Shown here piece by piece: positions 24,262 through 42,872 of a stretch of 64,000 nucleotides of DNA. The notes below the pieces were generated by a model. It was not told the origin of the DNA. It ran no database searches and saw nothing but the letters and a program-made list of their open reading frames with translations. The stretch comes from Waterburya sp. (GTDB lineage Bacteria; Cyanobacteriota; Cyanobacteriia; Cyanobacteriales; Xenococcaceae), in assembly GCA_965217895.1 (NCBI GenBank), contig CBDCJV010000002.1:3488001-3552000 (forward strand), in the 5' to 3' direction. The position numbers and the translations under genes are program-made. The stretch's first letter is position 1; every line of letters starts with the position of its first letter.

Positions 24262-25644
24262 ATGAAATCGGCTTGGTTAACCATCATGCTTTCAAAGCCA
24301 CAGTTGCATCAGTGGCGCAAAGGTAGCTATCTTCATCGATCAGTTGGCGTTTTAGCTAGCTGGCGACAGGGAAGTTGGCTGCTGCAATGGTCTGAGGCAA
24401 TTGGAGCTTGCTTAATTAGCCTGGTTTTTGTATTTGCACCTTTTGTTTCTACTGCTTTAATTGGTGTTTTGTTGCTTGCTGTTGCAGCCTACTGGGTTGT
24501 AATTACTATTTCTACAGCTAAAAAAGAAACGCTCAGCATTACGCCGATTCATATTTTAGTTTTTTTGTACTGGTGCATAGCGGCGATCGCCACAGCTTTT
24601 TCTCCCGTTAAGTCTGCTGCCTTAAATGGTCTAGTAACCTTGACTATTTATTTAATTTTGTTTGCTTTAGCAGCACAACTATTGCGATCGCCTAAACTAT
24701 ATAACTGGATTATCACTAGCTATTTATTAACTGCTTTGGTAGTTAGTTCTTATGGCGTGCGCCAGGAGTTTTTTGGCGTACAGCAGTTAGCCACCTGGAA
24801 CGATCCTACCTCACCCTTGGCAAACGAGACGAGAGTTTATAGCTACTTAGGCAATCCTAATTTGTTGGGAGGATATTTATTACCAGCGATCGCTTTAAGC
24901 ATAGCTGCGGTTTTTATGTGGCGTGGTTGGATTAAAAAAACTTTAGCGGTAACTATGGTAATAATTAATTCGAGCTGTCTATATTTTACTGGTAGTCGTG
25001 GAGCATGGTTGGCGATGACAGTATTAATTAGTGTAATGCTGCTGCTGTTTTACTATTGGTGGCGTGAATATTTACCTCGCTTCTGGCAAATTTGGTTATT
25101 ACCTTTGGTATTTGGCAGTTTGGCAGGAATGTTTATCTTGGCATTTATTTCTCTAGAGCCTTTACGCATCAGAGTTATGAGTATTTTTGCAGGTAGAGGA
25201 GACAGCAGCAATAATTTTCGGATTAACGTTTGGCAAGCCTGTTTCAAAATTATTGAAGACTACCCAATAATTGGCATTGGACCAGGACATGATGCTTTTA
25301 ATAAAATTTATCCCCGCTACATGGACTCACGCTATCCTGCCCTAAGTGCCTATTCAATCTATTTAGAACATCTGGTAGAAATGGGCTACATTGGCTTGGG
25401 GTGCTTTGTCTGGCTCTTGGTAGTCACATTTAATCATGGCATAGGTCAATTAATTCGTTTACGTCAGAGCAAAAACAAAAGAGGAATCTATCTAATTGCT
25501 GCGATCGCTGCGATCGCTAGTCTGTCTCTTCATGGCTTTGTGGACACAGTTTGGTATCGCCCGCAAATTAATACACTCTGGTGGTTGACCTTAGCCATTA
25601 TTGCTAGCTTCTACGACGATGTTAATACAATCAAAAATCAATAA
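24262..25644 (+). CDS. ictB: IctB-family membrane protein (O-antigen ligase-like)
   Basis: RVYSYLGNPNLL, TGSRG, DSSNNFRINVW, GIGPG, DTVWYRP. Confidence 0.88.
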   Translation: MKSAWLTIMLSKPQLHQWRKGSYLHRSVGVLASWRQGSWLLQWSEAIGACLISLVFVFAPFVSTALIGVLLLAVAAYWVVITISTAKKETLSITPIHILVFLYWCIAAIATAFSPVKSAALNGLVTLTIYLILFALAAQLLRSPKLYNWIITSYLLTALVVSSYGVRQEFFGVQQLATWNDPTSPLANETRVYSYLGNPNLLGGYLLPAIALSIAAVFMWRGWIKKTLAVTMVIINSSCLYFTGSRGAWLAMTVLISVMLLLFYYWWREYLPRFWQIWLLPLVFGSLAGMFILAFISLEPLRIRVMSIFAGRGDSSNNFRINVWQACFKIIEDYPIIGIGPGHDAFNKIYPRYMDSRYPALSAYSIYLEHLVEMGYIGLGCFVWLLVVTFNHGIGQLIRLRQSKNKRGIYLIAAIAAIASLSLHGFVDTVWYRPQINTLWWLTLAIIASFYDDVNTIKNQ

Positions 25645-25740
25645 GTAGGGTGGGCAATCTAAAAATAAAGTGTGTCAATTCATATTAAAACCAAATTTGC
25701 CCACCTTACCAGTTAGGGGCGAACGGCCGTTCGCCCGTAC
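25645..25740. repeat. Two REP-type elements: a gtagggtgggcaa/ttgcccaccttac pair and a REP at 25713-25740
   Basis: Inverted GTAG-type repeats between the convergent ictB and smpB genes. Confidence 0.75.
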
Positions 25741-25752
25741 ATCAGCAATTAT

Positions 25753-26967: not shown

Positions 26968-27073
26968 TGAAATATCGTAATTTCTTAAAGGGAATGCTCA
27001 CCAAGACGGCTTAAAGCTTAAGGCTTAGAGCTATCTTAACTAATCAATTGTCTTAACCCGAACTGAGGTTAAA

Positions 27074-28801
27074 TTAAATGCCATGACTTTTGCCAATTAC
27101 CCAGTGGCGACGAAAAAAGCGAGAGAGGCTAGATTCTTCGAGGGAAAGATAAATCGGTCTACCGTGGGGACAGGTGCGAGGATTACGAGTAGCTTGCCAT
27201 AAATCCAATAGATTTTGCATTTCTTTGATACTTAGAGCTGTACCGTTACGAATTGCGCTACGACAGGCACTAGCTACTTGAGCCGATCGCAAATCTCCTC
27301 CCCAGCTTAACTCAATTAAAGCATCAGCACAGTCATCTCGATTAGCAAGTATTTTCGGTGCATTGCGAATTGCCCAAATGTTCTCGCCAAAAAGTTCGAC
27401 GTTAATTTTTAGTTTCTGCAATTGCTCAAGCTGAGATTGTCTTAAATATTCTAAAGTAATGGGGGTTGTTAAAGATACTAATTCCCAGCAGCTACAAAGC
27501 TGCTCGTATAATACTCTTTCGTGGGCAATATGCTGTTCAACTAGCCATACTCCAGAAGAATGTTCCGCTACAATATAGGTTTTGTTGACTTGTGCTACTG
27601 CCTTTAGCTTTAGCGAATTAGGTTGAGAAGATGTGTTTGCTTCCAGTTTTTCGGTGAGATGGCGATCTACCTGATATTTGCCTGAAGCTTCGGCTACCTT
27701 TAACATTCTGCCGATTCGGCGATCGCCTACCGCAGCAGGGAGATTAACTGTATTTAACTTTAAGGCTTGAGAAATTGCTTTGCTAATTTCTGTCTGCCAA
27801 TAAGCAAGAGAGTGAAGATAAATTTCGGTTTTAGCGGGGTGACGATTCCAATCAATTTGGCTAGGGCAGGTATGAAGATGTAATAAACATACAGGAAAGC
27901 GATCGCGTGGTAGGGTTTTTGCCATACTGTTGAGGATAGTCTGTTCTAATTCAGGCGATCGCACATAGCGATTATTGACTGAAACTTTTACCCAATCTGA
28001 CTTATGGCGATGACAGCGATCTGGTAAACCCATGACTAATTCAATCTGGGAATTGGACTGCTGTTGGTTAACTATAAAAGAGGCTAAATTATCCTTTTTA
28101 AAAGGAGTGGGAATTTCTATTTTGAGATGGTGTAAGTCACTACTGCTAATCCTCCTGAGAAATTGCGGTAAAACATCCTTGGCGGTTGCACCTGGACTAA
28201 CGTAAAACCAAGGACTATTATTTTGTTTAATTTGCCAAGTGATTTGTGGATGACACAGGGCAATTTGCTGAATTAGTTTTTGAACTGCCTTTAACTGCTG
28301 ATTCAAGGCGGGCAAACCTCGACGACGTACAGGAAGCTTGGCAAACAAGTTAGAGACGGTGATAATCGTGCCTGTGGCGATCGCTACTGCCGATTCTAGC
28401 TGAGATTTACCCTCAAGGTAATTTACCTTCCAGCCAACAGGATCTGATTGATGCTTAGCGCGACTACAAATATTTAAATCTGCTACTTGAGCAATACTAT
28501 GAAGAGCTTCACCCCTAAATCCTAAACTAGTAATGTGCCACAGGTCTTTACGACTGCGAATCTTGCTGGTGCTGTGGGGTTGAGCGCAGATTCTTAAATC
28601 ATCTAAAGACATTCCCTTGCCATTGTCTATTACCTGAACTTGCCATAGTTCAGGATGCAGAGAAATAGTAATTCTATTTGCCCCTGCATCAAGGGAATTT
28701 TCTACCAACTCTCTTACCACCGCTGCCAAAGAATCAATGACCTCTCCCGCAGCAATGAGATCGATCACCTCATCTGGTAAAGTTTGAATCTCACAAGGCA
28801 T
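27074..28801 (-). CDS. mutL: DNA mismatch repair endonuclease MutL
   Basis: IAAGEVI, ELVENSLDA, LGFRGEAL, EQHIAHERVLYE, CPHGRP. Confidence 0.96.
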   Translation of the reverse strand: MPCEIQTLPDEVIDLIAAGEVIDSLAAVVRELVENSLDAGANRITISLHPELWQVQVIDNGKGMSLDDLRICAQPHSTSKIRSRKDLWHITSLGFRGEALHSIAQVADLNICSRAKHQSDPVGWKVNYLEGKSQLESAVAIATGTIITVSNLFAKLPVRRRGLPALNQQLKAVQKLIQQIALCHPQITWQIKQNNSPWFYVSPGATAKDVLPQFLRRISSSDLHHLKIEIPTPFKKDNLASFIVNQQQSNSQIELVMGLPDRCHRHKSDWVKVSVNNRYVRSPELEQTILNSMAKTLPRDRFPVCLLHLHTCPSQIDWNRHPAKTEIYLHSLAYWQTEISKAISQALKLNTVNLPAAVGDRRIGRMLKVAEASGKYQVDRHLTEKLEANTSSQPNSLKLKAVAQVNKTYIVAEHSSGVWLVEQHIAHERVLYEQLCSCWELVSLTTPITLEYLRQSQLEQLQKLKINVELFGENIWAIRNAPKILANRDDCADALIELSWGGDLRSAQVASACRSAIRNGTALSIKEMQNLLDLWQATRNPRTCPHGRPIYLSLEESSLSRFFRRHWVIGKSHGI

Positions 28802-28951
28802 ATACTTCTCAATCTAGTTGGGGAAACTACGTAAGCAAAAGCTTTTGCTACTTAAATATTAAGGTAGTCATCAAATTTGAGCGTACCTTACGATCATTTA
28901 TCCTACCCTGTTATTGCTTAATTAAATATAGCTAAATATGTTTTTAAAATA

Positions 28952-29032
28952 GCGATCGCAATATTACTGCATCGGGTTTGATCACTATTGTTTGGGAATA
29001 AAAATCAAATGAGTTTTGGGGAAAGCGATCGC
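28952..29032 (+). repeat. HIP1-to-HIP1 81-bp paralogous copy of the PIN toxin 3' end (31092-31172)
   Basis: Ungapped match; both copies begin and end with GCGATCGC; encodes DRNITASGLITIVWE*. Confidence 0.85.
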
Positions 29033-29097
29033 CTTTTCGGGGATGGAAATGTTGCACATTAATCATTGTGCCGTTACTGTAAATACACAAAAAACAA

Positions 29098-29685
29098 TTA
29101 AGCTGACAAAATATTATTCACAGTGACTTTTAATTCGGGAAAAGTCATCGAATCAACAGTTTCATCGACTGCAAATACTGTTTTGGCGTAGCTTCCTGAC
29201 TCTAAAACTAAAATTGTTATTTTCTGTTGAATAGGATCGACAATCCAATACTCAGGAATACCTATATTTTGGTATTCTGCTGTCTTTTCGCTATAGTCTC
29301 TAGACACTTGTTCAGTACCAGGACTTACTACTTCAACAGCTAACATTAAACCATCTTCAATCACGGCTGAAGAGTTACGGCGATAACTTTGCCAAACTTG
29401 ATTATTGATAACTGCAATATCGGGAATTCTGGCAGAGTTAATCCCAGTTCTAACTCCTACATCACCAGTCTTAACTTTAATATTTAATTTGTACTCTTTG
29501 GCTATAGCTTTGAAACAATCAGCAATGAAGTCAATAATATCTGAATGCAAAAAACTGGCTGGAGGCATTTCTACTAATTTACCTTTAACCAATTCATAAA
29601 CCTCATTAGTGTCATATTCACCATAGTTGAGATATTCTTGATAGGTTATTTCATTTGCGGGTGTAGTGACCATCAGGGGTTGCAT
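29098..29685 (-). CDS. Uma2 family (DUF820) endonuclease
   Basis: ELVKGKLVEMPP...H, RIPDIAV, LAVEVVSPG, K...Y, GIPEYWIVDP. Confidence 0.92.
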   Translation of the reverse strand: MQPLMVTTPANEITYQEYLNYGEYDTNEVYELVKGKLVEMPPASFLHSDIIDFIADCFKAIAKEYKLNIKVKTGDVGVRTGINSARIPDIAVINNQVWQSYRRNSSAVIEDGLMLAVEVVSPGTEQVSRDYSEKTAEYQNIGIPEYWIVDPIQQKITILVLESGSYAKTVFAVDETVDSMTFPELKVTVNNILSA

Positions 29686-29760
29686 TCAAAGGATGGTTAT
29701 GGCTTGAATATTTATAATAATACGTTATTTTATTGTCAAGATAGTTGGTCATCTAGATTG

Positions 29761-29867
29761 ATCATAGGGGCGTTTCGCGAAACGCCCCTACGGGGTTTGG
29801 CGGTGTTGGTACGGGGTCGATCGCCAATAATCATGATGATGGAAAAATAATTGGTAATGGCGATCGA
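29761..29867 (+). repeat. REP plus about 75-bp tail ending in a HIP1-like site; paralog of 33361-33467
   Basis: ataggggcgtttcgcgaaacgcccctac; tail aligns without gaps to 33361-33467. Confidence 0.8.
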
Positions 29868-29917
29868 TTCATGAGGATGCAAATGCTCTAATTTAATTGG
29901 ACTGTCGTTCTTCGAGT

Positions 29918-30194
29918 TTATTTTGCCAGCCATGATTTAATAATTGCTTGCCTAGCAACACCTAAACGAGATGCTTCTCGATCTAAGCCCTCGATCATCT
30001 ACAGGGGCAGATTAACATCGATCTTTTTTTGTTAAAGATTGACTCGCTCGGCATCTGCTAGCTCAAAATATTCCAAGATGCTTTCTTGGTTGCCGTCAAA
30101 CTTTCGCTCTAATTTATTTTTATTGCTTTTCATAAATTCTCACTTCTTCCTGTCTAGTCCTTACTGAAATAAGGCGAATAATTTCATTTCGATA
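29918..30194 (-). pseudogene. Decayed BrnT toxin 3' end plus BrnA/CopG-type antitoxin with two nonsense codons
   Basis: YRNEIIRLISVRTRQEEVRIY, then MKSNKNKLERKFDGNQESILEYF...VNL*QKKIDVNLPL*MIEGLDREASRLGVARQAIIKSWLAK* (30133..29918). Confidence 0.75.
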
Positions 30195-30269
30195 AAAATT
30201 GCCAGCATTGCAATTAGTTTTTTTAAAATTACATAACGGATATATGACGGATTAATTCTAGACCCTTTA

Positions 30270-30356
30270 TTTTTCTGCTTGTTTTAGTTCTTCTCTTAAA
30301 ACTCGACGTAGTGTTTCTTCAAGAGGTTCTTGCTGAATATGTTGTCGTAACTCTTG
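30270..30356 (-). pseudogene. C-terminal remnant of a BrnA-like antitoxin
   Basis: Translates ELRQHIQQEPLEETLRRVLREELKQA; bounds approximate. Confidence 0.5.
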
Positions 30357-30412
30357 GAAAGCGAGGATCTTTAATAAGTTTTTCTATTGTATTACCTGTG
30401 CGATACTGTGAC

Positions 30413-30450
30413 GGCGATCTCCTGTAGTGTTTATCGGGGTCATATTTCAT
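30413..30450 (-). pseudogene. 5' stub of a third RAYT gene
   Basis: MKYDPDKHYRRS, nearly identical to the start of 32723..33277; breaks at a HIP1-like site (GGCGATCTC on +). Confidence 0.75.
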
Positions 30451-30502
30451 TGGGATTGTCTAAGTTATAATTATTTCAACAATTTAAGAGAAATAATCAA
30501 AA

Positions 30503-30733
30503 ATGTTTCAGTCTGTAAAAGGAGTCTACAAACATGGCTCAATTGAATTAACAGAGATGCCAGAAAATATTGAAGAAAGCCAGGTAATCGTTACATTTCT
30601 AGAAACCAAATTAAAACAGACAAGTAAACGTATGTCTTTTGGAATGTTTACTGGCTCAAAACAATCTAATAAAGATGATTTTGAGATAGCAGAATTTACT
30701 GGAGATCCTGATGACAACTTAAACTGGCAATAA
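30503..30733 (+). CDS. Putative antitoxin of the downstream PIN toxin
   Basis: 76 aa, VKGVYKHGSIEL...VIVTFL, acidic tail; 6 nt upstream of the PIN gene. Confidence 0.7.
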   Translation: MFQSVKGVYKHGSIELTEMPENIEESQVIVTFLETKLKQTSKRMSFGMFTGSKQSNKDDFEIAEFTGDPDDNLNWQ

Positions 30734-30739
30734 ACAGTT

Positions 30740-31141
30740 ATGAGGTATGTTGTCGATACTCATGCTTTAGTCTGGTTTTTAGAAGGTAATTCGCGTTTGG
30801 GGACAAATGCCAAAACTATTCTGGCTAATTCTGATAGTCAATTAATTTTGCCTGCGATCGCTCTAGCCGAAGCAGTTTGGATTGTCGATCGTGCTAGAAC
30901 ATCAATTCCTTCAGTAGTAGATTTACTCGATGCAGTAAGTGCCGATCCTAGAATAGCAATTTATCCGCTAGACAAAGCTGTTATTGAGCAAAGTATTAGC
31001 TTGTCTGCTATTACCGAGATGCACGATCGATTAATCGTAGCTACTGCACTTATCTTAGAAAATAGAGGAGAAAATATTGCATTGTTGACTTGCGATCGCA
31101 ATATTACTGCATCGAGTTTAATCTCTATTATTTGGGAATAA
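30740..31141 (+). CDS. PIN-domain (VapC-like) toxin
   Basis: VVDTHALVW, ALAE, HDRLIVATA, LLTCD. Confidence 0.9.
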   Translation: MRYVVDTHALVWFLEGNSRLGTNAKTILANSDSQLILPAIALAEAVWIVDRARTSIPSVVDLLDAVSADPRIAIYPLDKAVIEQSISLSAITEMHDRLIVATALILENRGENIALLTCDRNITASSLISIIWE

Positions 31142-31188
31142 AAATAATATGGGTTTTGGGTAAGGCGATCGCCCCAACAGGGTTTCAT

Positions 31189-31730
31189 TTACCATTTTGA
31201 GAGGTTATCTGGATGCAACTGATCTATTGACCAGGATCGGGGATTGTTGATGATGTATTGGCGAATTTTATCCATTGCGTCCTGGTTACGGATAATGTGT
31301 TCGTAATAATTACGTTGCCATAACGTCGTTCCTGGTGCATCACGTAAGATATCGATTTTTTTGGTGGAAACGGTTTTGAATGCACCGATTAAACCTCCCA
31401 ATGGTTTACGTTGTTTATTGATTACATTGGCGTTATGCCGTTTATTTGTCGTAGGGGTTCGTCGGTAATAACCATGATTGCATGGAAATGATTCGGCATC
31501 ACAATCCATTCATCGGTGTACAAATACGGATAACGTTGACACAACCATTGCCATTCATCGGCAACGATCGCACCATATTGATTCAAAACCATTTGCCCAT
31601 CAACCACATCACCAAATAAACATTGTCGTTGATACGCACATATTGTCACAAAATACGCCCCCGATTGGCTATAATCATATCCTGGTAATCGGATTGACCG
31701 CCTGTGGTGTTTGTCGAGGTCATATTTCAT
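31189..31730 (-). pseudogene. REP-associated tyrosine transposase (RAYT), frameshifted
   Basis: HHRRSIRLPGYDYS, MPNHFH, then a frameshift near 31455 before KPLGGLIGAFK...WQRNYYEHIIR...YIINNP. Confidence 0.88.
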
Positions 31731-31917
31731 TAATTTAATCTCCATGCTTAACCCAATCCGTCATATTGACGAACTCTTCTTTTCAGATGTTCTCTTAGAG
31801 ACAAAAGCGATCGCAGAAAATAGATTCACATCAATATGACAATTTATCGCTGCAAATCAATTTAGAAAAATCAACTTTCCTCTGGCAATTTGACACTAAT
31901 ACTTTATCGCTTCGCTC

Positions 31918-32289
31918 TTATAATTTTATTAATCCAAAACTAATTTGAATTGCTCGTTCGACTTGTTTCATTGATGTCAAAGTAAGTTTACCTAACCGTT
32001 TAATAAGTCGTTTTTTATCTATAGAGCGAATTTGATTGAGCAATACTACAGAATTATTACTAAGTCCGCCTTCGGGAGGTTCAATGAAAACTTCAGTAGG
32101 ATAGAGATTGTCATCATACTGAGAAGTAATAGCTGCAACAATTGTAATAGGGCTAAATTCATTGCCGATGTCGTTTTGGAGAATTAAAGCAGGACAAGTT
32201 TTTTTTATTTCTGAACCAATAGTAGGATCGAAATTAACTAAATACACTTCACCACGTTTCGGTAACATTATTTTTGGTTTTCGAGCCAT
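31918..32289 (-). CDS. PemK/MazF family toxin
   Basis: RGEVYLVNFDPTIGSEIKKTCPALILQND, QIRSIDKKRL; the usual KTRP Arg is Cys here. Confidence 0.9.
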   Translation of the reverse strand: MARKPKIMLPKRGEVYLVNFDPTIGSEIKKTCPALILQNDIGNEFSPITIVAAITSQYDDNLYPTEVFIEPPEGGLSNNSVVLLNQIRSIDKKRLIKRLGKLTLTSMKQVERAIQISFGLIKL

Positions 32290-32513
32290 ACCTCTTCTTC
32301 GAGATCGAACCAAGTTTCAGCCAGATTTAAGTCTCTTTGCGATCTTTCAATAGCTCCCTGTCTTAACTGTTCTCTTAGTTTTTTCTTTTCAACTTCAGTA
32401 ATATAATATTTGACTGCATCGTTGATAAAACGACTGCGATCGCCTTTGGGAACTATGTGATTAAGTAATTCAATAGTTTCGTTTGGCAAAGTGATATTAA
32501 TGCGACGATTCAT
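32268..32513 (-). CDS. Ribbon-helix-helix antitoxin paired with the MazF toxin
   Basis: RRINITLP...RSRFINDAV; overlaps the toxin start. Confidence 0.85.
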   Translation of the reverse strand: MNRRINITLPNETIELLNHIVPKGDRSRFINDAVKYYITEVEKKKLREQLRQGAIERSQRDLNLAETWFDLEEEVWLENQK

Positions 32514-32611
32514 TTTCCATCTTGTTTCAATAAGTATTTTTAATACACATTATTAGTGTGTAGATTTAATATAGCAAAAATATTACAGCTTAGAATGACT
32601 TCAATGTGATG

Positions 32612-32718
32612 GTGCGATGTGTTGATAATTAACAACATTGGCGTTGTGCCGATCATTAATCGTAGGGGCGATCGCGCGTTGCGAAGCTATGCCGTAGGCT
32701 TATCGCCCTGACAGGGTT
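32612..32718 (+). repeat. Left direct repeat flanking the RAYT; its REP carries a small insert at a HIP1 site
   Basis: gtgcgatgtgttgataattaacaacattggc...gtaggggcga matches 33314-33398; insert gcgaagctatgccgtaggcttatcgc. Confidence 0.8.
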
Positions 32719-32722
32719 TTAC

Positions 32723-33277
32723 TTACCATTTTGATGGGTTATTTGGATGCAATTGATCTATTGACCAGGATTGGGGATTATTGATGATGTATTGGCGTAT
32801 TTTATTCATTGCGTCCTGGTTACGGATAATGTGTTCGTAATAATTGCGTTGCCATAACGTTGTTCCTGGCGCGTCACGTAATATATTGATTTTTTTGGTG
32901 GTGATTGATTTGAAACCTGCCATTAATGATGATAATGATTTTGGTTTCATTTGTGATGGCGAAATATCCCGTAGGGGCGAACGGCCGTTCGCCCCTACAT
33001 GGTTGTCGTTGGTAATCATTACAATTCCGTGAAAATGGTTGGGCATCATCACCCATCGATCCAATTCAATTTCCCGTCGAATTACGGATGATTTTTGCCA
33101 TTCATCGGCGACAATTGCACCATATTGATTCAAAACCATTTGCCCATCAACCACATCACCAAACAAACATTGTCGTCGATACGCGCAAATGGTCACAAAA
33201 TACGCCCCTGATTGGCTGTAATCATATCCTGGTAATCGGATCGATCGCCTGTGGTGTTTGTCGGGATCATATTTCAT
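32723..33277 (-). CDS. REP-associated tyrosine transposase (RAYT/TnpA-REP, HUH family), intact
   Basis: RRSIRL, YFVTIC, MPNHFH (HUH), WQRNYYEHIIR, YIINNP; in-frame REP at 32971-32998. Confidence 0.92.
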   Translation of the reverse strand: MKYDPDKHHRRSIRLPGYDYSQSGAYFVTICAYRRQCLFGDVVDGQMVLNQYGAIVADEWQKSSVIRREIELDRWVMMPNHFHGIVMITNDNHVGANGRSPLRDISPSQMKPKSLSSLMAGFKSITTKKINILRDAPGTTLWQRNYYEHIIRNQDAMNKIRQYIINNPQSWSIDQLHPNNPSKW

Positions 33278-33313
33278 GGATTTTAATTATGGTTGGGTTG
33301 ATTAATTGCGATC

Positions 33314-33467
33314 GTGCGATGTGTTGATAATTAACAACATTGGCATTGTGTCGATCATTTATCGTAGGGGCGAACGGCCGTTCGCCCCTACAGGGTTTGA
33401 CGGTATTCGTACAAGATTGATCGCCATTCATCGTAATGATGGGAACACGATTGGTAATGGCGATCGC
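33314..33467 (+). repeat. Right direct repeat flanking the RAYT, with REP (33364-33391) and tail to HIP1 (33460)
   Basis: Matches 32612-32718 and 29761-29867. Confidence 0.82.
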
Positions 33468-33489
33468 TTAATTATTTAATTATTTCAAT

Positions 33490-34278
33490 TTAAGATTTGC
33501 TTGTCTTGGGCGGGATAGCTTCAACTCTGCCATCAGGATAAACCTTTAATTCACCACCAAGTTTTTCAATATTTTCCTGTGCTGCTTCACGGGTCATTTT
33601 TTCTTTGCTGTTTACCCAAACTTGAAACCAAATGCCTACTTGAGCTTGGGTTGTATCAGGATTTGTAGCTAAAAATTTGACTGTCTTACTGGCTGATTGA
33701 GCTATTTTCTTATCTTTTGCAATGGTTGCCCATTCTGCGGCTTTTTCGTAGGATTTTCTAGCATTTTTTAAGTCTCCAAAAAACAAAATTTCGTCTGTTC
33801 CTTTATATAGCCAAACAAAATAGGCATAGGGCATATCAGGGGTAAGATGTTTAAGTCCTCGATCCATTAGTTCTAAGGTGCGTTTTGGAGTGCCACCAAA
33901 TACAGAAGATGCAGGAGAAATAATCATATAAGCAGTGCTAAATCGTGGGTCTTTATTGGTAATAACTTCTAGATAATCTGCACTCAAGGAATAACCCGTT
34001 TCTTTTCTAGCTTCTCCATCACCAAAATATTGCATAAACTCTAGCATTGACCAATCTGCAATCAGATTATCAAAGCCAAAGGCTGGCATTTTTTTGAGAA
34101 AAGATAATTGTATATTTTTACTTTTATCTTGTTTTAAATAAATATCTTTTGTTAAAGTTTTTTCTGATATTCTTTCAATTTGAGCAGACTGCAATTTAAT
34201 AGTTAAAAATAAACAGGATGATCCTAAACATAATGCTAAAAATTGCTTGATAAACCGAGATGATAACTTTCTGGTCAT
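33490..34278 (-). CDS. Pilin-locus membrane-anchored protein (Sll1696-like)
   Basis: N-terminal TM; FGFDNLIADW...QYFGD; helical repeats; directly downstream of two pilins. Confidence 0.65.
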   Translation of the reverse strand: MTRKLSSRFIKQFLALCLGSSCLFLTIKLQSAQIERISEKTLTKDIYLKQDKSKNIQLSFLKKMPAFGFDNLIADWSMLEFMQYFGDGEARKETGYSLSADYLEVITNKDPRFSTAYMIISPASSVFGGTPKRTLELMDRGLKHLTPDMPYAYFVWLYKGTDEILFFGDLKNARKSYEKAAEWATIAKDKKIAQSASKTVKFLATNPDTTQAQVGIWFQVWVNSKEKMTREAAQENIEKLGGELKVYPDGRVEAIPPKTSKS

Positions 34279-34318
34279 AGTCTTTAATAATAAGCAAAAT
34301 TATGAATAAATAATTTAA

Positions 34319-34834
34319 TCAAAAAACAGGAGTGGTTCCAGCAGTGCAAGCAGGAACACCCGCAGTAACGGTTGCAGGAATCGGCGCGATTGCACCATCA
34401 GCCGTGTTTTGCTCGCAGATAAATGCTTTGAAAACACCTGAAGAAGTTTGACCAACAGCAGAAGAATAATCCTTGAGGTCATTTTGAAAGGTATCTACTA
34501 CGGTTGCTATCTGAACCGCTCTTTCGGAATTAGGAGTTCCGCTATCAGCATAAGTATAATAATTACCTGCAATGCTCAACTGTAGATTAGGAATAGTAGT
34601 AAATGAGCCTGTTTGAAAACGATGAGCTTGCTGCGCTCTATTAATATTACCAAGAAAAACTTTTGCTTCTGTTTGTCTACCTTTTTCTATTTGCTTAAAA
34701 AGACTTGGCATAGCAACTGCTGATAAAATACCCAGAATTATTACTACTACTAATAATTCAATTAAGGTAAAGCCTTGGTTATTTATCTTCTTGGTTTTTC
34801 TAGACAAAATTAAGTCTAATTTATATTTAATCAT
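34319..34834 (-). CDS. Type IV pilin (PilA2-like)
   Basis: QGFTLIELLVVVIILGIL prepilin motif; C-terminal Cys pair. Confidence 0.9.
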   Translation of the reverse strand: MIKYKLDLILSRKTKKINNQGFTLIELLVVVIILGILSAVAMPSLFKQIEKGRQTEAKVFLGNINRAQQAHRFQTGSFTTIPNLQLSIAGNYYTYADSGTPNSERAVQIATVVDTFQNDLKDYSSAVGQTSSGVFKAFICEQNTADGAIAPIPATVTAGVPACTAGTTPVF

Positions 34835-34847
34835 AATAAAAAATATC

Positions 34848-34885
34848 AAAAAAAAAGAGCATTTTAGCTAAACTTAAAATGCTCT
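34848..34885 (-). terminator. Terminator/attenuator between the two pilin genes
   Basis: agagcatttta / taaaatgctct stem, followed by a T run on the minus strand. Confidence 0.75.
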
Positions 34886-34916
34886 AGATATATACTTTGA
34901 ACAGTAACAGTTAAAC

Positions 34917-35468
34917 TTACTGTTTTATAGCAGTAGATCCTGTACCACAAGTGATAGTACCAAGAGTAGCGCCTTCAACGGCATCAACGGCAGTAGTAGC
35001 TCCGTCAACTACACTGTTTTCGCAGATTAGGGCAGTGAAAGCACCAGCAACAGTTTGACCCACTGCTCCAGTGTAATCCTTAACATCAGCTTGGTAAGCG
35101 GTTCTTGCGGTAGCGTCTACAGCAGCAAATGTACCAGATGGAGTACCTTGGTTAGTAAATGCATAATTATTACCAGTACCAGGAGTAGTACCAGCATCAA
35201 GAACTATACCAATTGGTAAAGCTTCAATAGCAGAGAACGTACCATTTTGTAGTCTTTCAGCCTGTTGTGAACGATTGATAGAACCGACAGTTGTTTTTGC
35301 TTCTGACTGTCTTGCTTTACCAACTTGACCAAGTAAGTTAGGTAGAGCAATGGCAGCCAATACACCGATAATGATTACAACAACTAATAGTTCGATTAAT
35401 GTAAAACCTTTGTTGCCTTTTTTGTTATTTAGGTTTTGTAGTAATTTAGCAGTAAATACGTTATTCAT
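34917..35468 (-). CDS. pilA: Major type IV pilin (PilA1-like)
   Basis: KGFTLIELLVVVIIIGVLAAIALPNLLGQVGKARQSEAK; Cys pair; likely ATG 35468. Confidence 0.9.
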   Translation of the reverse strand: MNNVFTAKLLQNLNNKKGNKGFTLIELLVVVIIIGVLAAIALPNLLGQVGKARQSEAKTTVGSINRSQQAERLQNGTFSAIEALPIGIVLDAGTTPGTGNNYAFTNQGTPSGTFAAVDATARTAYQADVKDYTGAVGQTVAGAFTALICENSVVDGATTAVDAVEGATLGTITCGTGSTAIKQ

Positions 35469-35540
35469 GGTTATATCCTTCAATTAATAAGAGTTTGTGT
35501 TTTGGGTGTTTGTTTTAGGTTTTTCTTTCCTATTTAGAAA

Positions 35541-35546
35541 TTACCC
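35541..35546 (-). promoter_or_regulatory. Putative SigF-type promoter element GGGTAA upstream of pilA
   Basis: ttaccc on + about 75 nt upstream of the ATG; cyanobacterial pilA1 promoters are SigF-dependent with a GGGTAA element. Confidence 0.55.
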
Positions 35547-35696
35547 AAGCGATCATCAAAACATATCATCATGAAAAAGTTTTTTTTGGGAATATTTGCT
35601 AGTAATAACTAATAGTATTAACAGCGATCCAAATCACATTTTTGGTGTTGATTTGAAGAAGATTAAATTAATGGTTTTGTTTGCCCCGTTGTTTTT

Positions 35697-35998
35697 TATT
35701 TTCGGGTAATACCGATATTCCCCGTAGGGGCGAACGGCCGTTCGCCCCTACATCAATGTGCGGTGGTGCGATGTTGACATATGTAGAGAATTGGGGAAAG
35801 GCGATCGCCTGAACGTATGCAGGGTTGGTTAAAGGCGATCGCATTTGTAATGTAGAATATTTTGGGATATGCGATCGCATTTGTGGATCATTTCAATTTT
35901 CGGGTAATACCGATAAACCTCGTAGGGGCGAATGGCCATTCGCCCCTACATATGGTGCGATCGCCTGAACGTATGAAGGGTTGGGGAAAGGCGATCGC
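35697..35998 (+). repeat. Array A: HIP1-bounded ~34-bp modules plus two REP palindromes (35724, 35922)
   Basis: GCGATCGC at 35801, 35835, 35871, 35957, 35991. Confidence 0.88.
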
Positions 35999-36059
35999 TC
36001 TTTTATTTTAACTGTGTTAAATTTAAAATAGAATAATGTAGTCTACAAGCTACAAATAA

Positions 36060-36404
36060 ATGGAAGCTCAAGAAAAAACTATACTTACCTATGTAAAAGA
36101 CAACGGTTTTGTACCCTTCAACGATTGGCTTGAATCTTTGCGAGATAGAAAATCAAGAGCAATAATCAGAACTAGAATCAACCGCCTTCGGCTGGGTAAT
36201 TTGGGAGACTGTAAGAGTGTCGATGGAGGAGTAAGCGAACTAAGAATTAATTTTGGTTCTGGCTATCGAATTTATTTTGTTCAGCAAGGAAACACAGTAA
36301 TAATTTTGCTATCAGGTGGAGATAAAAGCAGTCAGGACAAAGATATTAAACAGGCAAAACTATATTGGCAAGATTATAAGAGGCGTGGTGATGAACAGAA
36401 GTAG
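36060..36404 (+). CDS. RelE/ParE-superfamily addiction module killer protein
   Basis: FNDWLESLRD, GNLGDCKSV, GVSELRI.FGSGYRIYF, LLSGGDKSSQ.KDI. Confidence 0.9.
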   Translation: MEAQEKTILTYVKDNGFVPFNDWLESLRDRKSRAIIRTRINRLRLGNLGDCKSVDGGVSELRINFGSGYRIYFVQQGNTVIILLSGGDKSSQDKDIKQAKLYWQDYKRRGDEQK

Positions 36405-36690
36405 AAGCTATCGAGAAGATTTGCTAAAATCTTTGAGCGATCCTGAAGAAGCCAGGGAATATCTTAATGCTGCTTTGGAAGATGAAAATCCCGAAGTATT
36501 TTTATTGGCACTAAAAGATATAGTTGATGCTAACAGCAGCATGAGTAAATTAGCACAGGCAACTAATCGCAATCGAGAAAGTTTGTATAAAACTCTCTCG
36601 GAAAAAGGCAATCCGCAGTTAAATAGTATTCGCAGTATTTTAAACAATTTGGGGTTTAAATTAGCGGTAGAAGTTAATTCTTCTCCCTAA
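36391..36690 (+). CDS. Addiction module antidote protein (HTH)
   Basis: EYLNAALE, RESLYKTLSEKGNP; ATG 36391 overlaps the toxin end. Confidence 0.88.
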   Translation: MNRSRSYREDLLKSLSDPEEAREYLNAALEDENPEVFLLALKDIVDANSSMSKLAQATNRNRESLYKTLSEKGNPQLNSIRSILNNLGFKLAVEVNSSP

Positions 36691-36737
36691 AATTGTTTAC
36701 ATCAAGGATTTATTTATATAGGGCGATCTCTGTCAAA

Positions 36738-37067
36738 TCATAATCCCAACCAGCTTCGTAAGGAACTTTCTAGTTTTTGAGCATCGGCTTTTGAAAGTTT
36801 ACCAATGACTTTTATCACTAGCTTTTTTTCGACTGTATATAAACCTCTTTTTGCTGCGGTAGGAACATTTAATCCTTCTTTTAACCAATCGAGAAGAACA
36901 AACTCGCCTGACAATAACCGAGTAGTTTTACTAGTTAAGGGTACGATAATAACATCTTGAGAAGTAGATGCTGTACTAACAATAACAGCAGGTCTTACCT
37001 TAGAATTAGATAAATCAGAAAAAGGATAACGGACTAGAATAATATCATTCTTCAAGTAATTTGGCAT
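36738..37067 (-). CDS. PemK/MazF family toxin
   Basis: IILVRYPFSDLSNSKVRPAVIVS, IIVPLTS. Confidence 0.88.
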   Translation of the reverse strand: MPNYLKNDIILVRYPFSDLSNSKVRPAVIVSTASTSQDVIIVPLTSKTTRLLSGEFVLLDWLKEGLNVPTAAKRGLYTVEKKLVIKVIGKLSKADAQKLESSLRSWLGL

Positions 37068-37248
37068 AAACATCATCCTCTGTGTTGTCCCAAACTTTGT
37101 CTAATGATGCTTTGCTAGATTGATTCCAAAACTCAATTTCTTCATCTGGTAGTACTGTAATTAGAACTCTCGTACCTTCTGAAAGTTCAAGCTGTTCTGG
37201 TATTTCAATTTTTCCTTGATGGACAGTAGCTAACACTGTTTTTAACAT
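37045..37248 (-). CDS. Putative antitoxin
   Basis: 67 aa, GKIEIPE...GTRVLITVL, WDNTEDDVY; overlaps the toxin start. Confidence 0.75.
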   Translation of the reverse strand: MLKTVLATVHQGKIEIPEQLELSEGTRVLITVLPDEEIEFWNQSSKASLDKVWDNTEDDVYAKLLEE

Positions 37249-37310
37249 AGGAATTTTATGGTGTGTAGATATATTTTAATTTAGCTTGTTGCAGTATAAA
37301 TTTGAGAAAT

Positions 37311-37540
37311 GCGATCGCATTTGTATGTAGAAGATTTTGGGATATGCGATCGTGATTGCGTATAAAGGGTTTAAAAAAGGCGATCGCCCTTTCTGGTAGA
37401 AAATTAATTAAAGGCGATCGCCTTGGGGATTATTTCAATTTCCTGGTAATACCGATAAACCTCGTAGGGGCGAACGGCCGTTCGCCCTTACATATGGTGC
37501 GATCGCCTGAACGTATAAAGGGTTGGGATAAGGCGATCGC
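37311..37540 (+). repeat. Array B: HIP1-bounded ~34-bp modules plus a REP (37464-37491)
   Basis: HIP1 or a variant at 37311, 37346, 37380, 37414, 37499, 37533; modules shared with array A. Confidence 0.88.
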
Positions 37541-37549
37541 ACAAATTAC

Positions 37550-37927
37550 CTACCAATTAATGACTGTTAGATCGTTAACCTTGTCTAATTGAACATCGCG
37601 AGTAACTAGCTTCGCTGATTTTTCTCTTGCCGTTGCAGCGATAACTGCATCTGGTAATTTTAAGCGGTATTGTTGACGAATAAAAATAATTTGCCCAATT
37701 AGCCATTCATCTTGACTAGATAAACTAATAACTTCTACTCGTTGTAAAAACTGTTGAAAAAGCAATATATCCGCTTCAGTTAAGCCTGAGAAAGCAAGAA
37801 ACTCGATTTGACTAATTACAGAAATTCCGACCCATTCTGCATCTTTGAGTAATTGAACCAGGCTGGAGTCTTTTTGCAGCAGCGCAATGATAGCATTGGT
37901 ATCTAACAAATAGCGATTACCATTCAT
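37550..37927 (-). CDS. PIN-domain (VapC-like) toxin
   Basis: LLDTNAII, SVISQIE, LKLPDAVIAATA, LVTRD. Confidence 0.92.
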   Translation of the reverse strand: MNGNRYLLDTNAIIALLQKDSSLVQLLKDAEWVGISVISQIEFLAFSGLTEADILLFQQFLQRVEVISLSSQDEWLIGQIIFIRQQYRLKLPDAVIAATAREKSAKLVTRDVQLDKVNDLTVINW

Positions 37928-38141
37928 CTCTTAATTTTCTTTGTGTTGCCACAGCATCACCTTGCCAGTTGAGTTCTCCTCCCAAATCTGAAAAATCATA
38001 GGTAGCTTGTTTTTGATCCTTCTCTACAACACGATTAACGACTACTACTAAATCCACTTTGCCAGCTTTTAGATTAGTTGGCAGATTAATATTCAACTGT
38101 CCTGTGTCATCAATCTCAGTTGTGAGTTTTAGAACTTCCAT
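37917..38141 (-). CDS. Putative antitoxin
   Basis: 74 aa ending QRKLRDEW; overlaps the PIN start. Confidence 0.78.
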   Translation of the reverse strand: MEVLKLTTEIDDTGQLNINLPTNLKAGKVDLVVVVNRVVEKDQKQATYDFSDLGGELNWQGDAVATQRKLRDEW

Positions 38142-38349
38142 TGTTTTCTATATTTTAGTAAAAGCTTTACTCTATGGTAGCAATTTGACAATTCAAGAAG
38201 GCGATCGCACTTTGAAAGTCAAAAGTTTTAAAGGCTTAAGCTGCATGGAGTAAAAAAGAATTATGGTTTAAGGCTTTGGGATAACAACTTTATTAAAAAT
38301 CTCGCTAGGATGAAAGCAGATCATCAGGCTCTAAGGCAGAGGAAAAGCA

Positions 38350-40239: not shown

Positions 40240-40500
40240 CTTCCAAGCGGTTTTACTCTCGTTAGCACTACCTAAAAAACTGGTTTCACTGCCGTCTGTA
40301 TATGTAATAATTCCTGCCTTACCGTGAATTAGCCCAAATACTTCATCGGGAAGTACCCGCACCTGCATTTTGTCCTGAGCTAGAAACTCGAACAGTCGGG
40401 CAAAGCGAGGATGAGATAGTTCTGGTAATTTTTTGGGTTTACCTGCACACCAAGAACGACGGATGGCGGTACGGGAAGCTTTAGCGGTTTCTACATCTTG
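40233..40500 (-). pseudogene. Internal fragment of a PLD-like nuclease(-helicase) defence gene
   Basis: QDVETAKA...RRSWCAGKP...FGLIHGKAGIIT...FLGSANES; HxK and GSAN PLD-type motifs; no start or helicase part. Confidence 0.65.
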
Positions 40501-40758
40501 GACGAAAAGATCGGAGTTACAAACTACTCTAATTGTTCCATCATCAAAAAAGAACTACTAGCCGCCATTGAAGTTGCTTCTGATGAAGTACTTGCCCAGA
40601 CTCTTTTCCTTAAAAAATCTTTAAACACAGTAGGAAATACATCTTTATCTAGAGAGTACCCAAGTTCACTTGATCGTTTTACAAAATTTTTGCAATCTGA
40701 AGGTTTTTATGAAGATGAGTATATTGATCGCTGCATGGCAGAAATCGAAAATAAATGA
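40498..40758 (+). CDS. Hypothetical protein or possible antitoxin remnant
   Basis: Stop overlaps the PIN start (ATGA); start uncertain. Confidence 0.4.
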   Translation: MDEKIGVTNYSNCSIIKKELLAAIEVASDEVLAQTLFLKKSLNTVGNTSLSREYPSSLDRFTKFLQSEGFYEDEYIDRCMAEIENK

Positions 40759-41294
40759 TTGTCGCAGTTATTGATTCCTGCATCATTTTCGGAATGCCTT
40801 TGTGCGATACACTTTTGAGAGCCGCAGAACAAAATTTATATCGAATTATTCTATTTCAAAAAATACTTGAAGATGCCACTCGCAACATGGTTATCAAAAG
40901 TAAACTCAAAAGCGATCAAGAGCAATATTACCAGCAACAAATTCTAAATGCCTTTGCCGATTGTTTTGTAGAAGCTCCACCAAACCTGATTGAATCGATA
41001 ACTAATGCCACATCTGATCGCCACGTTGCGGCAACTGCGATCGCTAGCAATGCTAGTTATATTGTAACTTTCAATCTCAAAGATTTTTCTCAGACTTCCC
41101 TCGCTAACTACGATCTCGATGCCATACACCCCGATCTGTTTTTAAAATTATTATGCGATCGATGGGGAGATGAAAGATTATACCGACTGATTTGTCAACA
41201 ATCGAACGCTCTCCAAAATCCCCCTATTTCTCCTGAGTTACTTTTGAATAAACTAGCGCGTCAACAATGCGATCATTCAAATTTGAAGTTTTGA
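40755..41294 (+). CDS. PIN-domain protein
   Basis: AVIDSCII, DRHVAATAI, IVTFNLKDF, HPDLFL. Confidence 0.85.
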   Translation: MIVAVIDSCIIFGMPLCDTLLRAAEQNLYRIILFQKILEDATRNMVIKSKLKSDQEQYYQQQILNAFADCFVEAPPNLIESITNATSDRHVAATAIASNASYIVTFNLKDFSQTSLANYDLDAIHPDLFLKLLCDRWGDERLYRLICQQSNALQNPPISPELLLNKLARQQCDHSNLKF

Positions 41295-42264: not shown

Positions 42265-42872
42265 GTAGGGCTGTTTCATTCTAAAGCTAAAGTGGGTTAA
42301 ATTGATTTAAAGAACTAATTTAACCGCTTAATGACTTTAAAAAACTTTGATAAAAGCTTAATTGACTATCTAAAACAAATACCTGATGAACGAAAAGCTG
42401 GTGGTCGAAGGCATTCTTTGTGGCTGATATTATTGATAACGATTTTAGGCATAATGAGCGGTTATTGGGGATATCGAGGTTTGGGCAGATTTGTCGAACG
42501 GCATCGCCGTCAATTAATTGAAACGCTCAAAATCCCACAAGCTAGAGTTCCATCTTATTCGACAATGAGAAGGGTAATGATGAGCTTAGACTATGAGGCA
42601 GTAACTCAAGTATTTAATGAATGGGCATCTCAGTATACTCACAATAGTCAAGGTCAATGGATTGCAATTGATGGCAAAAGTTTGAAAAATACTGTCAACG
42701 ACTGTTATGGACAACAGCAAAACTTCGTCATGATGGTTTCGATTCTATGACCGAGGCAATCAGTTATTTAAGCCATAATTTGCCATTATTACTTCCTTTG
42801 TGCCACTGATAGGAATAGTAAATATACTTATTCGCGATCGCATTTCTTTTTTAGAGAATGAAACAGCCCTAC
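42265..42872 (+). mobile_element. ISAs1-family element, internally deleted
   Basis: Perfect 18-bp TIR gtagggctgtttcattct / agaatgaaacagccctac; truncated transposase 42331..42750 (IPDER...GRRH, PSYST, IAIDGKSL). Confidence 0.88.

Follow-up and report, generated by a model that had tools for sequence, protein, structure and literature searches.

An integron-like, integrase-free system of toxin-antitoxin cassettes around the pilin genes of a cyanobacterial lineage

The 64,000-nucleotide window analysed here (C2:3488001-3552000 of the Waterburya sp. source genome; feature positions below are window coordinates) contains, at 28952-38208, an island in which small toxin-antitoxin (TA) modules, a Uma2 nuclease gene and copies of a REP-associated tyrosine transposase (RAYT) gene surround the major pilin genes, punctuated by repetitive extragenic palindromes (REPs) and by the octamer HIP1 (highly iterated palindrome 1). 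A first-pass annotation had proposed this island as a set of cassettes joined at HIP1 and REP sites; its genes, remnants, REPs and octamers are indeed all present, and the two antitoxin-PIN pairs, two antitoxin-MazF pairs, single RelE-type pair and three RAYT copies or remnants that it listed could each be located. Comparison with related genomes establishes that a lineage-wide, integron-like, integrase-free cassette system around pilin genes is real, and that it is neither an integron nor driven by HIP1 alone.

The loci compared, fetched around pilin and RAYT genes, comprised 27 from the genus (the source locus counted), 16 from other genera of the family and seven from other families; many end at contig ends. 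Clusters of open reading frames (ORFs) were named with Pfam, and array markers were defined by at least 55% identity to genus references. Labels beginning with G denote genomes (G000 being the source genome) and those beginning with L denote fetched locus stretches. Within the source genome (5.29 Mb, 39% G+C, HIP1 density 1.1 per kb) 35 chromosomal toxin loci were collected by family searches and by homology to array genes, five of which lie in the island, the sole cluster with at least three. The island pairs are predicted type II TA modules, each consisting of a small antitoxin gene beside a toxin-family gene, with several antitoxins placed by position or weak matches. The island also holds six full REPs and 20 exact HIP1 sites per 9.26 kb (genome mean 10.3), a count reached by 0.5% of equal windows.

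Cassette arrays and their exchange between species

The pilin block (33490-35483, minus strand; PF16734/PF07963) consists of ORF262 (33490-34278), pilA2 (34319-34849) and pilA1 (34917-35483). In related species similar arrays lie on either side of pilA1-pilA2-ORF262: among the 27 genus loci, many cut by contig ends, 13 carry three or more array markers around the pilin genes. Where the first pass set the island beside the pilin, the pilin genes in fact stand mid-stretch, between two different arrays. The upstream pool comprises PIN, two MazF types, HicAB, MNT-HepT, DUF433/5615, RelB-ParE, DUF4160/2442, RelE-HI1420 and DUF559, and the downstream pool another MazF, another PIN, Uma2, BrnT/A, DUF29, XisI and another ParE; the two pools are largely distinct. 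Among 50 copies of 11 upstream cassette types none is flipped relative to the pilin, and pairwise comparisons of order were concordant in 31 cases and discordant in seven (11 versus three downstream). The arrays have a fixed polarity relative to the repeat described below, and their cassettes bear promoters and come with 50-90 nt of their own upstream DNA. In the source genome, G017, G019 and G023 alike, the TA cassette that comes first below ORF262 is the ribbon-helix-helix (RHH) antitoxin-MazF pair (31918-32513, minus strand; PF02452).

The HIP1 sites at 28952 and 38201, put forward earlier as the island's borders, do not coincide with the limits of homology: close-kin homology stops at 28925 and, past the last HIP1 (38201-38208), resumes only at 38288, 27 and 80 nt away respectively, and the genes adjoining these borders vary among relatives. 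An empty site between mutL and the GTPase gene was rejected, because the two genes are unlinked in relatives. The seven other-family loci, screened against window proteins and genus clusters only, gave no such arrays, and each of seven plasmid records compared covered at most 8% of 28900-36700. The upstream array of G020 lies 160 kb away from the pilin, with an ISAs1 copy at both sites.

As the first-pass annotation had supposed, cassettes are gained, lost and sometimes reordered; they are also exchanged between species. Whilst mutL is 92-96% identical among the close kin G017, G019, G020 and G023, ORF262 is only 57-72% identical at the nucleotide level among those compared, yet reaches 94% between G019 and G022, whose mutL genes are 76% identical, from which it follows that the pilin block is a horizontally swapped allele. 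Between G019 and G022 the swapped tract spans several kilobases and takes in both the block and the adjacent GT41 genes; in G019 a TA pair separates ORF262 from the GT41 block. Identity exceeds that of mutL by at least 10 percentage points in 32/124 cassette pairs. The AbrB-like antitoxin-MazF unit (36738-37248, minus strand) is 98.6% identical at the nucleotide level between the source genome and G052 (mutL 75%), in a shared tract of 609 bp with a HIP1-cored repeat on each end, and alignment of this unit reveals a within-gene mosaic in G019, indicating homologous recombination. Similarly, a RelB-ParE unit is 99.6% identical between G022 and G043 (mutL 76.5%), and the Uma2 nuclease cassette (29098-29685, minus strand) is 95.5% identical at the nucleotide level to that of a genome with mutL only 77% identical, the common tract stopping exactly at the HIP1 at 29025. 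Single units and longer tracts alike pass between species, arriving on the same side and in the same orientation.

Several further observations concern the pilin loci and arrays of relatives. TPR-GT41 glycosyltransferase genes travel with the pilin allele in G019/G022 at 91-94% nucleotide identity (L037:3854-8337, L039:10580-19733). TA arrays with RAYT fragments and no major pilin block in the stretch occur at L061 (G054), L065 (G013), L067 and L081 (G019) and L069 (G016), and may be pieces split off by rearrangement. At L041:8420-10355 (G023) pilA1, pilA2 and ORF262 look broken into short frames, reflecting either lost pili or errors of assembly. Upstream of pilA1 and divergent from it, 11 loci (12 matches; L031, L034, L037, L041, L052, L068, L076, L077, L089, L091 and L103) have a gene for a DUF559 (Vsr-like) nuclease. 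Where mapped, this gene has G/C-run hairpins on its flanks; the hairpin unit in L041 (6121-8024) and L037 is a tandem array of 150-160 bp, each unit having one HIP1. The gene and hairpins may be a second nuclease-plus-repeat pair, a subject on which our literature search returned nothing.

Spacer repeats, HIP1 junctions and the RAYT gene

The upstream spacer is a degenerate direct repeat of 34-36 bp with a HIP1 site on either side, and it invariably lies on the pilin strand. In ten genomes of the genus it recurs between upstream cassettes in a single orientation, and tandem copies precede the pilA1 upstream region. In the source genome the proximal spacer (35693-35998, minus strand) carries HIP1-bounded repeats of 34-36 bp at 35801, 35835 and 35957 as well as REPs at 35724-35751 and 35922-35949, and a second spacer (37311-37540, minus strand) has four such repeats of 34-35 bp and a REP at 37464-37491. 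A repeat profile trained without the source genome ranked six island units at the top of 124 HIP1 doublets and a seventh 13th; within this genome the repeat is confined to the island, and there is no genome-wide excess of 34-bp HIP1 spacing. A narrow repeat pattern gave four matches in 3/301 genomes, all of the same genus and all in TA arrays, together with no viral match and one from the metagenome collection (a contig already in the set), but misses the source genome's own copies and so cannot show absence.

The downstream spacers consist of co-oriented RAYT fragments and a REP; in many of them a C-terminal piece is followed by HIP1, an N-terminal piece and then cargo. A RAYT leader (33357-33472, minus strand) comprises a HIP1 (33460), a RAYT-derived fragment and a REP (33364-33391), and a copy of it at 29757-29872 (minus strand; HuH-region fragment plus REP at 29765-29792) is 76% identical and matches the RAYT DNA profile. 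The HIP1 immediately past a RAYT stop codon (31165-31172) is a recurrent junction. A REP is, in effect, a HIP1 divided by a loop, and collapsed forms occur, as in the sequence at 32662-32706, where a REP collapsed into a HIP1 (32668) adjoins a 24-nt, SDR5-like insert within a degenerate HIP1. Since the starts of 20/37 upstream repeat units resemble the REP right arm (7.9% of genomic HIP1 sites do so), the 34-36 bp repeat probably descends from REPs. Its units have no GTAG foot and fold only via HIP1:HIP1 pairing, with no stem-extension covariation in 28 units (P > 0.25 at seven of eight positions, 0.026 at the other). As a side observation, 21-24 nt inserts after the third base of HIP1, at window 32676-32706 and in the L037 and L032 spacers, resemble the SDR5 insertion point described in PMC4390886.

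Junctions were located in cassette pairs with identity of 90% or above. For every copy and side only the longest extension was used, reciprocal pairs were counted once, and ends that fell within 40 nt of the available flank, or over 5 nt into the gene, were excluded. Homology ended within 4 nt of a HIP1 in either copy at 14/41 junctions (8.2 expected) and in both copies at 11/41 (3.7 expected; nominal P 4e-4). Upstream, 11/23 junctions lie at HIP1 and four more 10-14 nt into the repeat. In a gap-free step test, applicable to the 27/64 pair-sides with an in-register first HIP1, identity fell from 0.85 inside to 0.50 just outside and 0.37 beyond. A HIP1 lies within 25 nt of 15/27 RAYT C-termini, with identity of 0.81 before it and 0.30 after, where ten unrelated downstream sequences follow.

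This bias does not extend to the genome at large. When 400 kb of G023 was compared with the source genome, 6/234 block ends lay at HIP1 in either genome and 1/234 in both, although these are blastn ends whereas the cassette junctions came from different extension code; the same control gave 84 rearrangement ends per 400 kb, and HIP1 at 4/150 ordinary indel ends in either genome. Over the region compared, G023:C1:1000001-1400000, these two genomes (92% identical) differ by a rearrangement roughly every 10 kb, and the ends do not fall at HIP1. In agreement with the first-pass proposal, homology at the cassette junctions stops at HIP1 more often than expected by chance, but HIP1 as a general breakpoint is rejected by the 1/234 control: HIP1 matters when embedded in the repeat, and not alone. 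The expectation that TA genes would be enriched beside spacer modules genome-wide also fails, given that the spacer repeat is restricted to the island and that none of 51 PIN, MazF or Uma2 genes elsewhere has a REP within 2 kb (background 3.4%). HIP1 itself is modestly enriched behind Uma2 and MazF genes elsewhere, but not behind PIN genes: 12/35, 3/5 and 1/11 of them, respectively, have one no more than 100 nt from the 3' end, against a background of 12.8% of 2214 genes.

The RAYT gene at 32723-33277 (minus strand) is the sole intact close copy in the genome, so that it lacks the multicopy, dispersed transposition typical of IS200/IS605 elements; apart from one weak match, all RAYT-derived DNA outside the REP core lies in the island. 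Its HuH motif and catalytic tyrosine align to 4ER8 and are invariant in nine sequences, whilst its score on NF047646 (65.5) is below the cut-off of 80. The ratio of non-synonymous to synonymous substitution rates (dN/dS) is 0.07-0.13 across 15 pairs, which points to purifying selection. An in-frame double-foot REP within the gene (32971-32998) is a trait of TnpA_REP subclass 2.4 as set out in 10.1101/279083. The gene stands directly behind ORF262 in 15/27 genus loci (twice as a fragment) and in 4/16 other-genus loci; G022 and the single-contig G023 gave no match to this RAYT, and G017 one of just E 6e-4; all three carry arrays. Of 78 further RAYT relatives from various phyla, seven have TA-type genes nearby, as judged from the 142 small ORFs that lie no more than 2.2 kb away. 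A stretch from another cyanobacterial genome (L109:4877-9963) has a RAYT with tandem REP+HIP1 modules, together with co-oriented copies between PIN, UPF0175 and GNAT genes; it adjoins the gene for a 1597-residue protein, and the 12.6 kb stretch contains no pilin. Other relatives stand beside Mrr, TIR, Cas6, N6-methylase and MksE genes (L137, L148, L165, L173, L126), which suggests a wider link to defence loci.

Candidate mechanisms and relation to known systems

The explanation that we favour, with moderate confidence, is homology-driven exchange via directional repeats, probably in the course of transformation, with addiction retaining the cassettes. Incoming DNA, most likely acquired by natural transformation, would recombine through host homologous or microhomologous recombination, for which shared repeats, shared cassettes and the conserved pilA1 5' end and upstream region (35290-35690, minus strand; a candidate anchor with 86-92% nucleotide identity to five genus loci) would provide portable homology in genomes with little common gene order. 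Crossovers would often resolve at HIP1 within the repeat, and repeat-repeat recombination would also delete and re-insert units, giving remnants and occasional changes of order but no inversions. The RAYT/REP system would act as the source of repeats, a REP arm being half a HIP1 and broken or collapsed REPs yielding HIP1 junctions, and the RAYT need not catalyse the exchange. Addiction, the post-segregational toxicity associated with TA modules, would keep intact TA pairs at an often-replaced locus and may account for their persistence there. Directional homology is called for by the fixed orientation and side-specific pools, and comEC is intact in the source genome.

A number of results weigh against this explanation. 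The cassette pairs share ancestry, so that the nominal P value overstates the junction bias; 27/41 junctions are away from HIP1 in both copies, and downstream just 3/18 are at HIP1. Concordant order is partly vertical, as the antitoxin-MazF pair shared by four close kin demonstrates, and downstream orientation has exceptions (Uma2b 2 versus 4, BrnT 1 versus 2, Uma2a 1 versus 16), some of which involve different paralogues. Degenerate repeats of 35 bp are short for RecA, and dprA appears split over two frames (C2:1742166-1742796), through either a real frameshift or an assembly error, such that the strain may transform poorly. Finally, a purely passive role would leave the purifying selection on the RAYT, and its place behind ORF262, unaccounted for.

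An unlikely alternative is that the RAYT is a domesticated cassette recombinase, which would nick single-stranded DNA (ssDNA) at REPs or REP-derived hairpins and, as an analogue of an integrase plus attI, attach units that are incoming or have been excised, both at the upstream repeats and just past its own stop codon. Its position and orientation behind ORF262 are fixed in the source genus and three other genera, and its dN/dS is about 0.09. The spacers derive from RAYT and REP sequence in a common orientation; they include RAYT junctions that run head to tail at HIP1 and successions of N-terminal piece, cargo and C-terminal piece, and L109 repeats this design away from a pilin. TnpA_REP enzymes process ssDNA by cleavage and strand transfer (PMC8266576), and integrases recruit cassettes from transforming ssDNA (PMC12614218). 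However, those TnpA_REP enzymes that have been characterised cleave close to a GTAG hairpin, at C|T or C|A (PMC8266576), whereas the enriched junction here is HIP1 and the 34-36 bp repeat has neither GTAG foot nor stem covariation. Arrays also occur in genomes without this RAYT (including the near-identical G022/G043 unit, for which the direction of transfer is ambiguous), TA-type neighbours are rare among RAYT relatives, and about 50 REPs elsewhere in the genome have no TA neighbours. Two joints seen in assembled contigs (33303 to 31165 and, in another study, 32582 to 33382) are read as other strains' arrays and not as excised circles, since the sample is a mixed one, with a second related organism at similar depth.

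Selection for new pilin and glycosylation alleles could alternatively import foreign tracts in which TA units hitch-hike and are hard to lose, the repeats and HIP1 junctions being scars of later deletion or slippage that play no part in acquisition. This is less probable still: the pilin-GT41 tract, the many remnants, the heavily scrambled genome and the majority of junctions lying away from HIP1 are as it would predict, but single inter-species units of 600-700 bp have repeats on both sides, ordinary indel ends are seldom at HIP1, and the repeat recurs between cassettes in one orientation across ten genomes. A general host system that moves any HIP1-bounded fragment by site-specific recombination at the HIP1 core, with TA units as survivors, seems very improbable. 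Work on PCC 7002 cited by PMC4390886 ties HIP1 to site-specific recombination, and the enrichment of HIP1 at Uma2 and MazF 3' ends is in keeping with this, but the ordinary breakpoints largely refute it, and PIN genes elsewhere show no enrichment. Those breakpoints, the lack of upstream inversions despite a palindromic core and the side-specific pools mean that HIP1 cores, at which the first pass placed the recombination, are insufficient alone. Junction enrichment solely within a locus-specific repeat likewise argues against a general recombination-core role for HIP1 and points to context-dependent use.

Several known systems resemble this one in part. With sedentary chromosomal integrons and clusters of attC sites lacking integrases (CALIN), as portrayed in PMC4889954 and PMC12614218, it shares units of one or two genes, TA cassettes among them, set apart by a degenerate repeat that is directional and specific to the locus, as well as fixed polarity and the horizontal exchange of single cassettes. 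It differs from them in that cassettes carry their own upstream DNA, order is mostly collinear, two separate arrays surround a housekeeping pilin block, and no integrase or attC-type site is evident. The best genome-wide match to the IntI model TIGR02249 scored 54.7 bits against a cut-off of 265, in line with the absence noted at first pass, and none of ten generic tyrosine recombinases is near the locus; a weak IntI-like match near C2:1.07 Mb was rejected, as ordinary genes are found there. No attC-type paired ssDNA hairpin was recognised by folding and covariation, applied without the IntegronFinder attC model.

The closest enzymes are the REPtrons of TnpA_REP subclass 2.4 (10.1101/279083) and, listed beside them, RAYT group 4 (PMC5581495). 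Shared features are a HuH-Y1 enzyme, double-foot GTAG...CTAC REPs, an in-frame REP between HuH and tyrosine, a single intact copy and frequent occurrence in cyanobacteria. Here, by contrast, cargo genes are spaced by the gene's own ends and by REP fragments, a HIP1 junction often takes the place of the 3' REP, and the gene has a fixed position next to a pilin. The association of TnpA_REP with prochlorosins in picocyanobacteria (10.1101/2020.03.09.984088) likewise has RAYT genes and fragments amid a hypervariable array of small genes, with causality unsettled in both cases, but concerns subclass 2.1, lanthipeptide-precursor cargo and another geometry, and does not invoke HIP1.

Work on HIP1-assisted transformation (10.1101/2024.09.10.611283, PMC4390886, PMC13756078) reports that homologous HIP1 promotes integration of transforming DNA, that homologous methylated HIP1 raises transformation more than 100-fold in PCC 7002 (10.1101/2024.09.10.611283), and that the abundance of HIP1 is correlated with genes for type IV pili and competence. 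Those studies are laboratory or phylogenetic in nature, whereas here the junction enrichment is natural, restricted to repeat-embedded HIP1 and not seen genome-wide.

A further parallel is homology-facilitated illegitimate recombination, in which one homologous anchor combines during transformation with short microhomology at the other end; here, by contrast, the microhomology is a recurring, oriented repeat common to several species. Pilins can also serve as phage receptors. A full-text literature search, which covered few subscription papers, returned no account of cyanobacterial pilin loci with TA arrays broken up by HIP1 or by repeats of RAYT origin.

A bolder synthesis, which we advance only tentatively, is that a domesticated RAYT and REP-derived, HIP1-cored repeats form a dedicated integrase-free platform that captures TA and defence units from transforming ssDNA beside the pilin, the arrays doubling as homology arms for pilin-allele swaps between species. 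For RAYTs, whose benefit to the host is unsettled, the present locus is a conserved setting in which gene and fragments punctuate a moving cargo array. If the present reading is confirmed, cyanobacteria would own an integron-like gene bank, built on general recombination or a HUH enzyme and tied to surface-fibre variation.

Remaining features of the island and window

The lower end of the island is rich in remnants. A PIN-gene tail (28952-29032, plus strand) with a HIP1 on either end duplicates 31092-31172 (89% identity over 82 nt). The two BrnT/BrnA remnants reported at first pass prove to be a BrnT tail plus a BrnA/CopG antitoxin pseudogene (29897-30221, minus strand; 92% amino acid identity to the intact BrnA of G020) and a second BrnA tail (30265-30350) fused to a ParE-cassette fragment (30350-30408; 30265-30408 overall, minus strand). 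A RAYT N-terminal stub of 12 codons (30415-30450, minus strand) terminates at a one-mismatch HIP1: the octamers at which pieces had been said to end are present, but those at 30413 and 29860 carry one mismatch and are not exact HIP1 sites. Beyond an antitoxin and PIN toxin pair (30503-31141, plus strand; PF01850) lie a frameshifted RAYT copy with a degenerate internal REP (31189-31730, minus strand) and the tail of a RelB-like antitoxin gene (31738-31779, minus strand), which is intact in G019; a BrnT origin considered for this tail was rejected.

On the upstream side, a RelE/ParE-type (HI1419) toxin with its HI1420 antidote (36060-36690, plus strand) scores above the TIGR02683/TIGR02684 cut-offs, and there is a further antitoxin and PIN toxin pair (37550-38141, minus strand; PF01850). 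Rfam gave no matches within the window. Outside the island, short dispersed repeats, one of them REP-like, occur at synteny breaks around smpB and mutL (25640-25750 and 27008-27076), and just past the GTPase gene (40498-41294 and 42331-42750) there are a small gene with a PIN-like gene and an ISAs1-type fragment.

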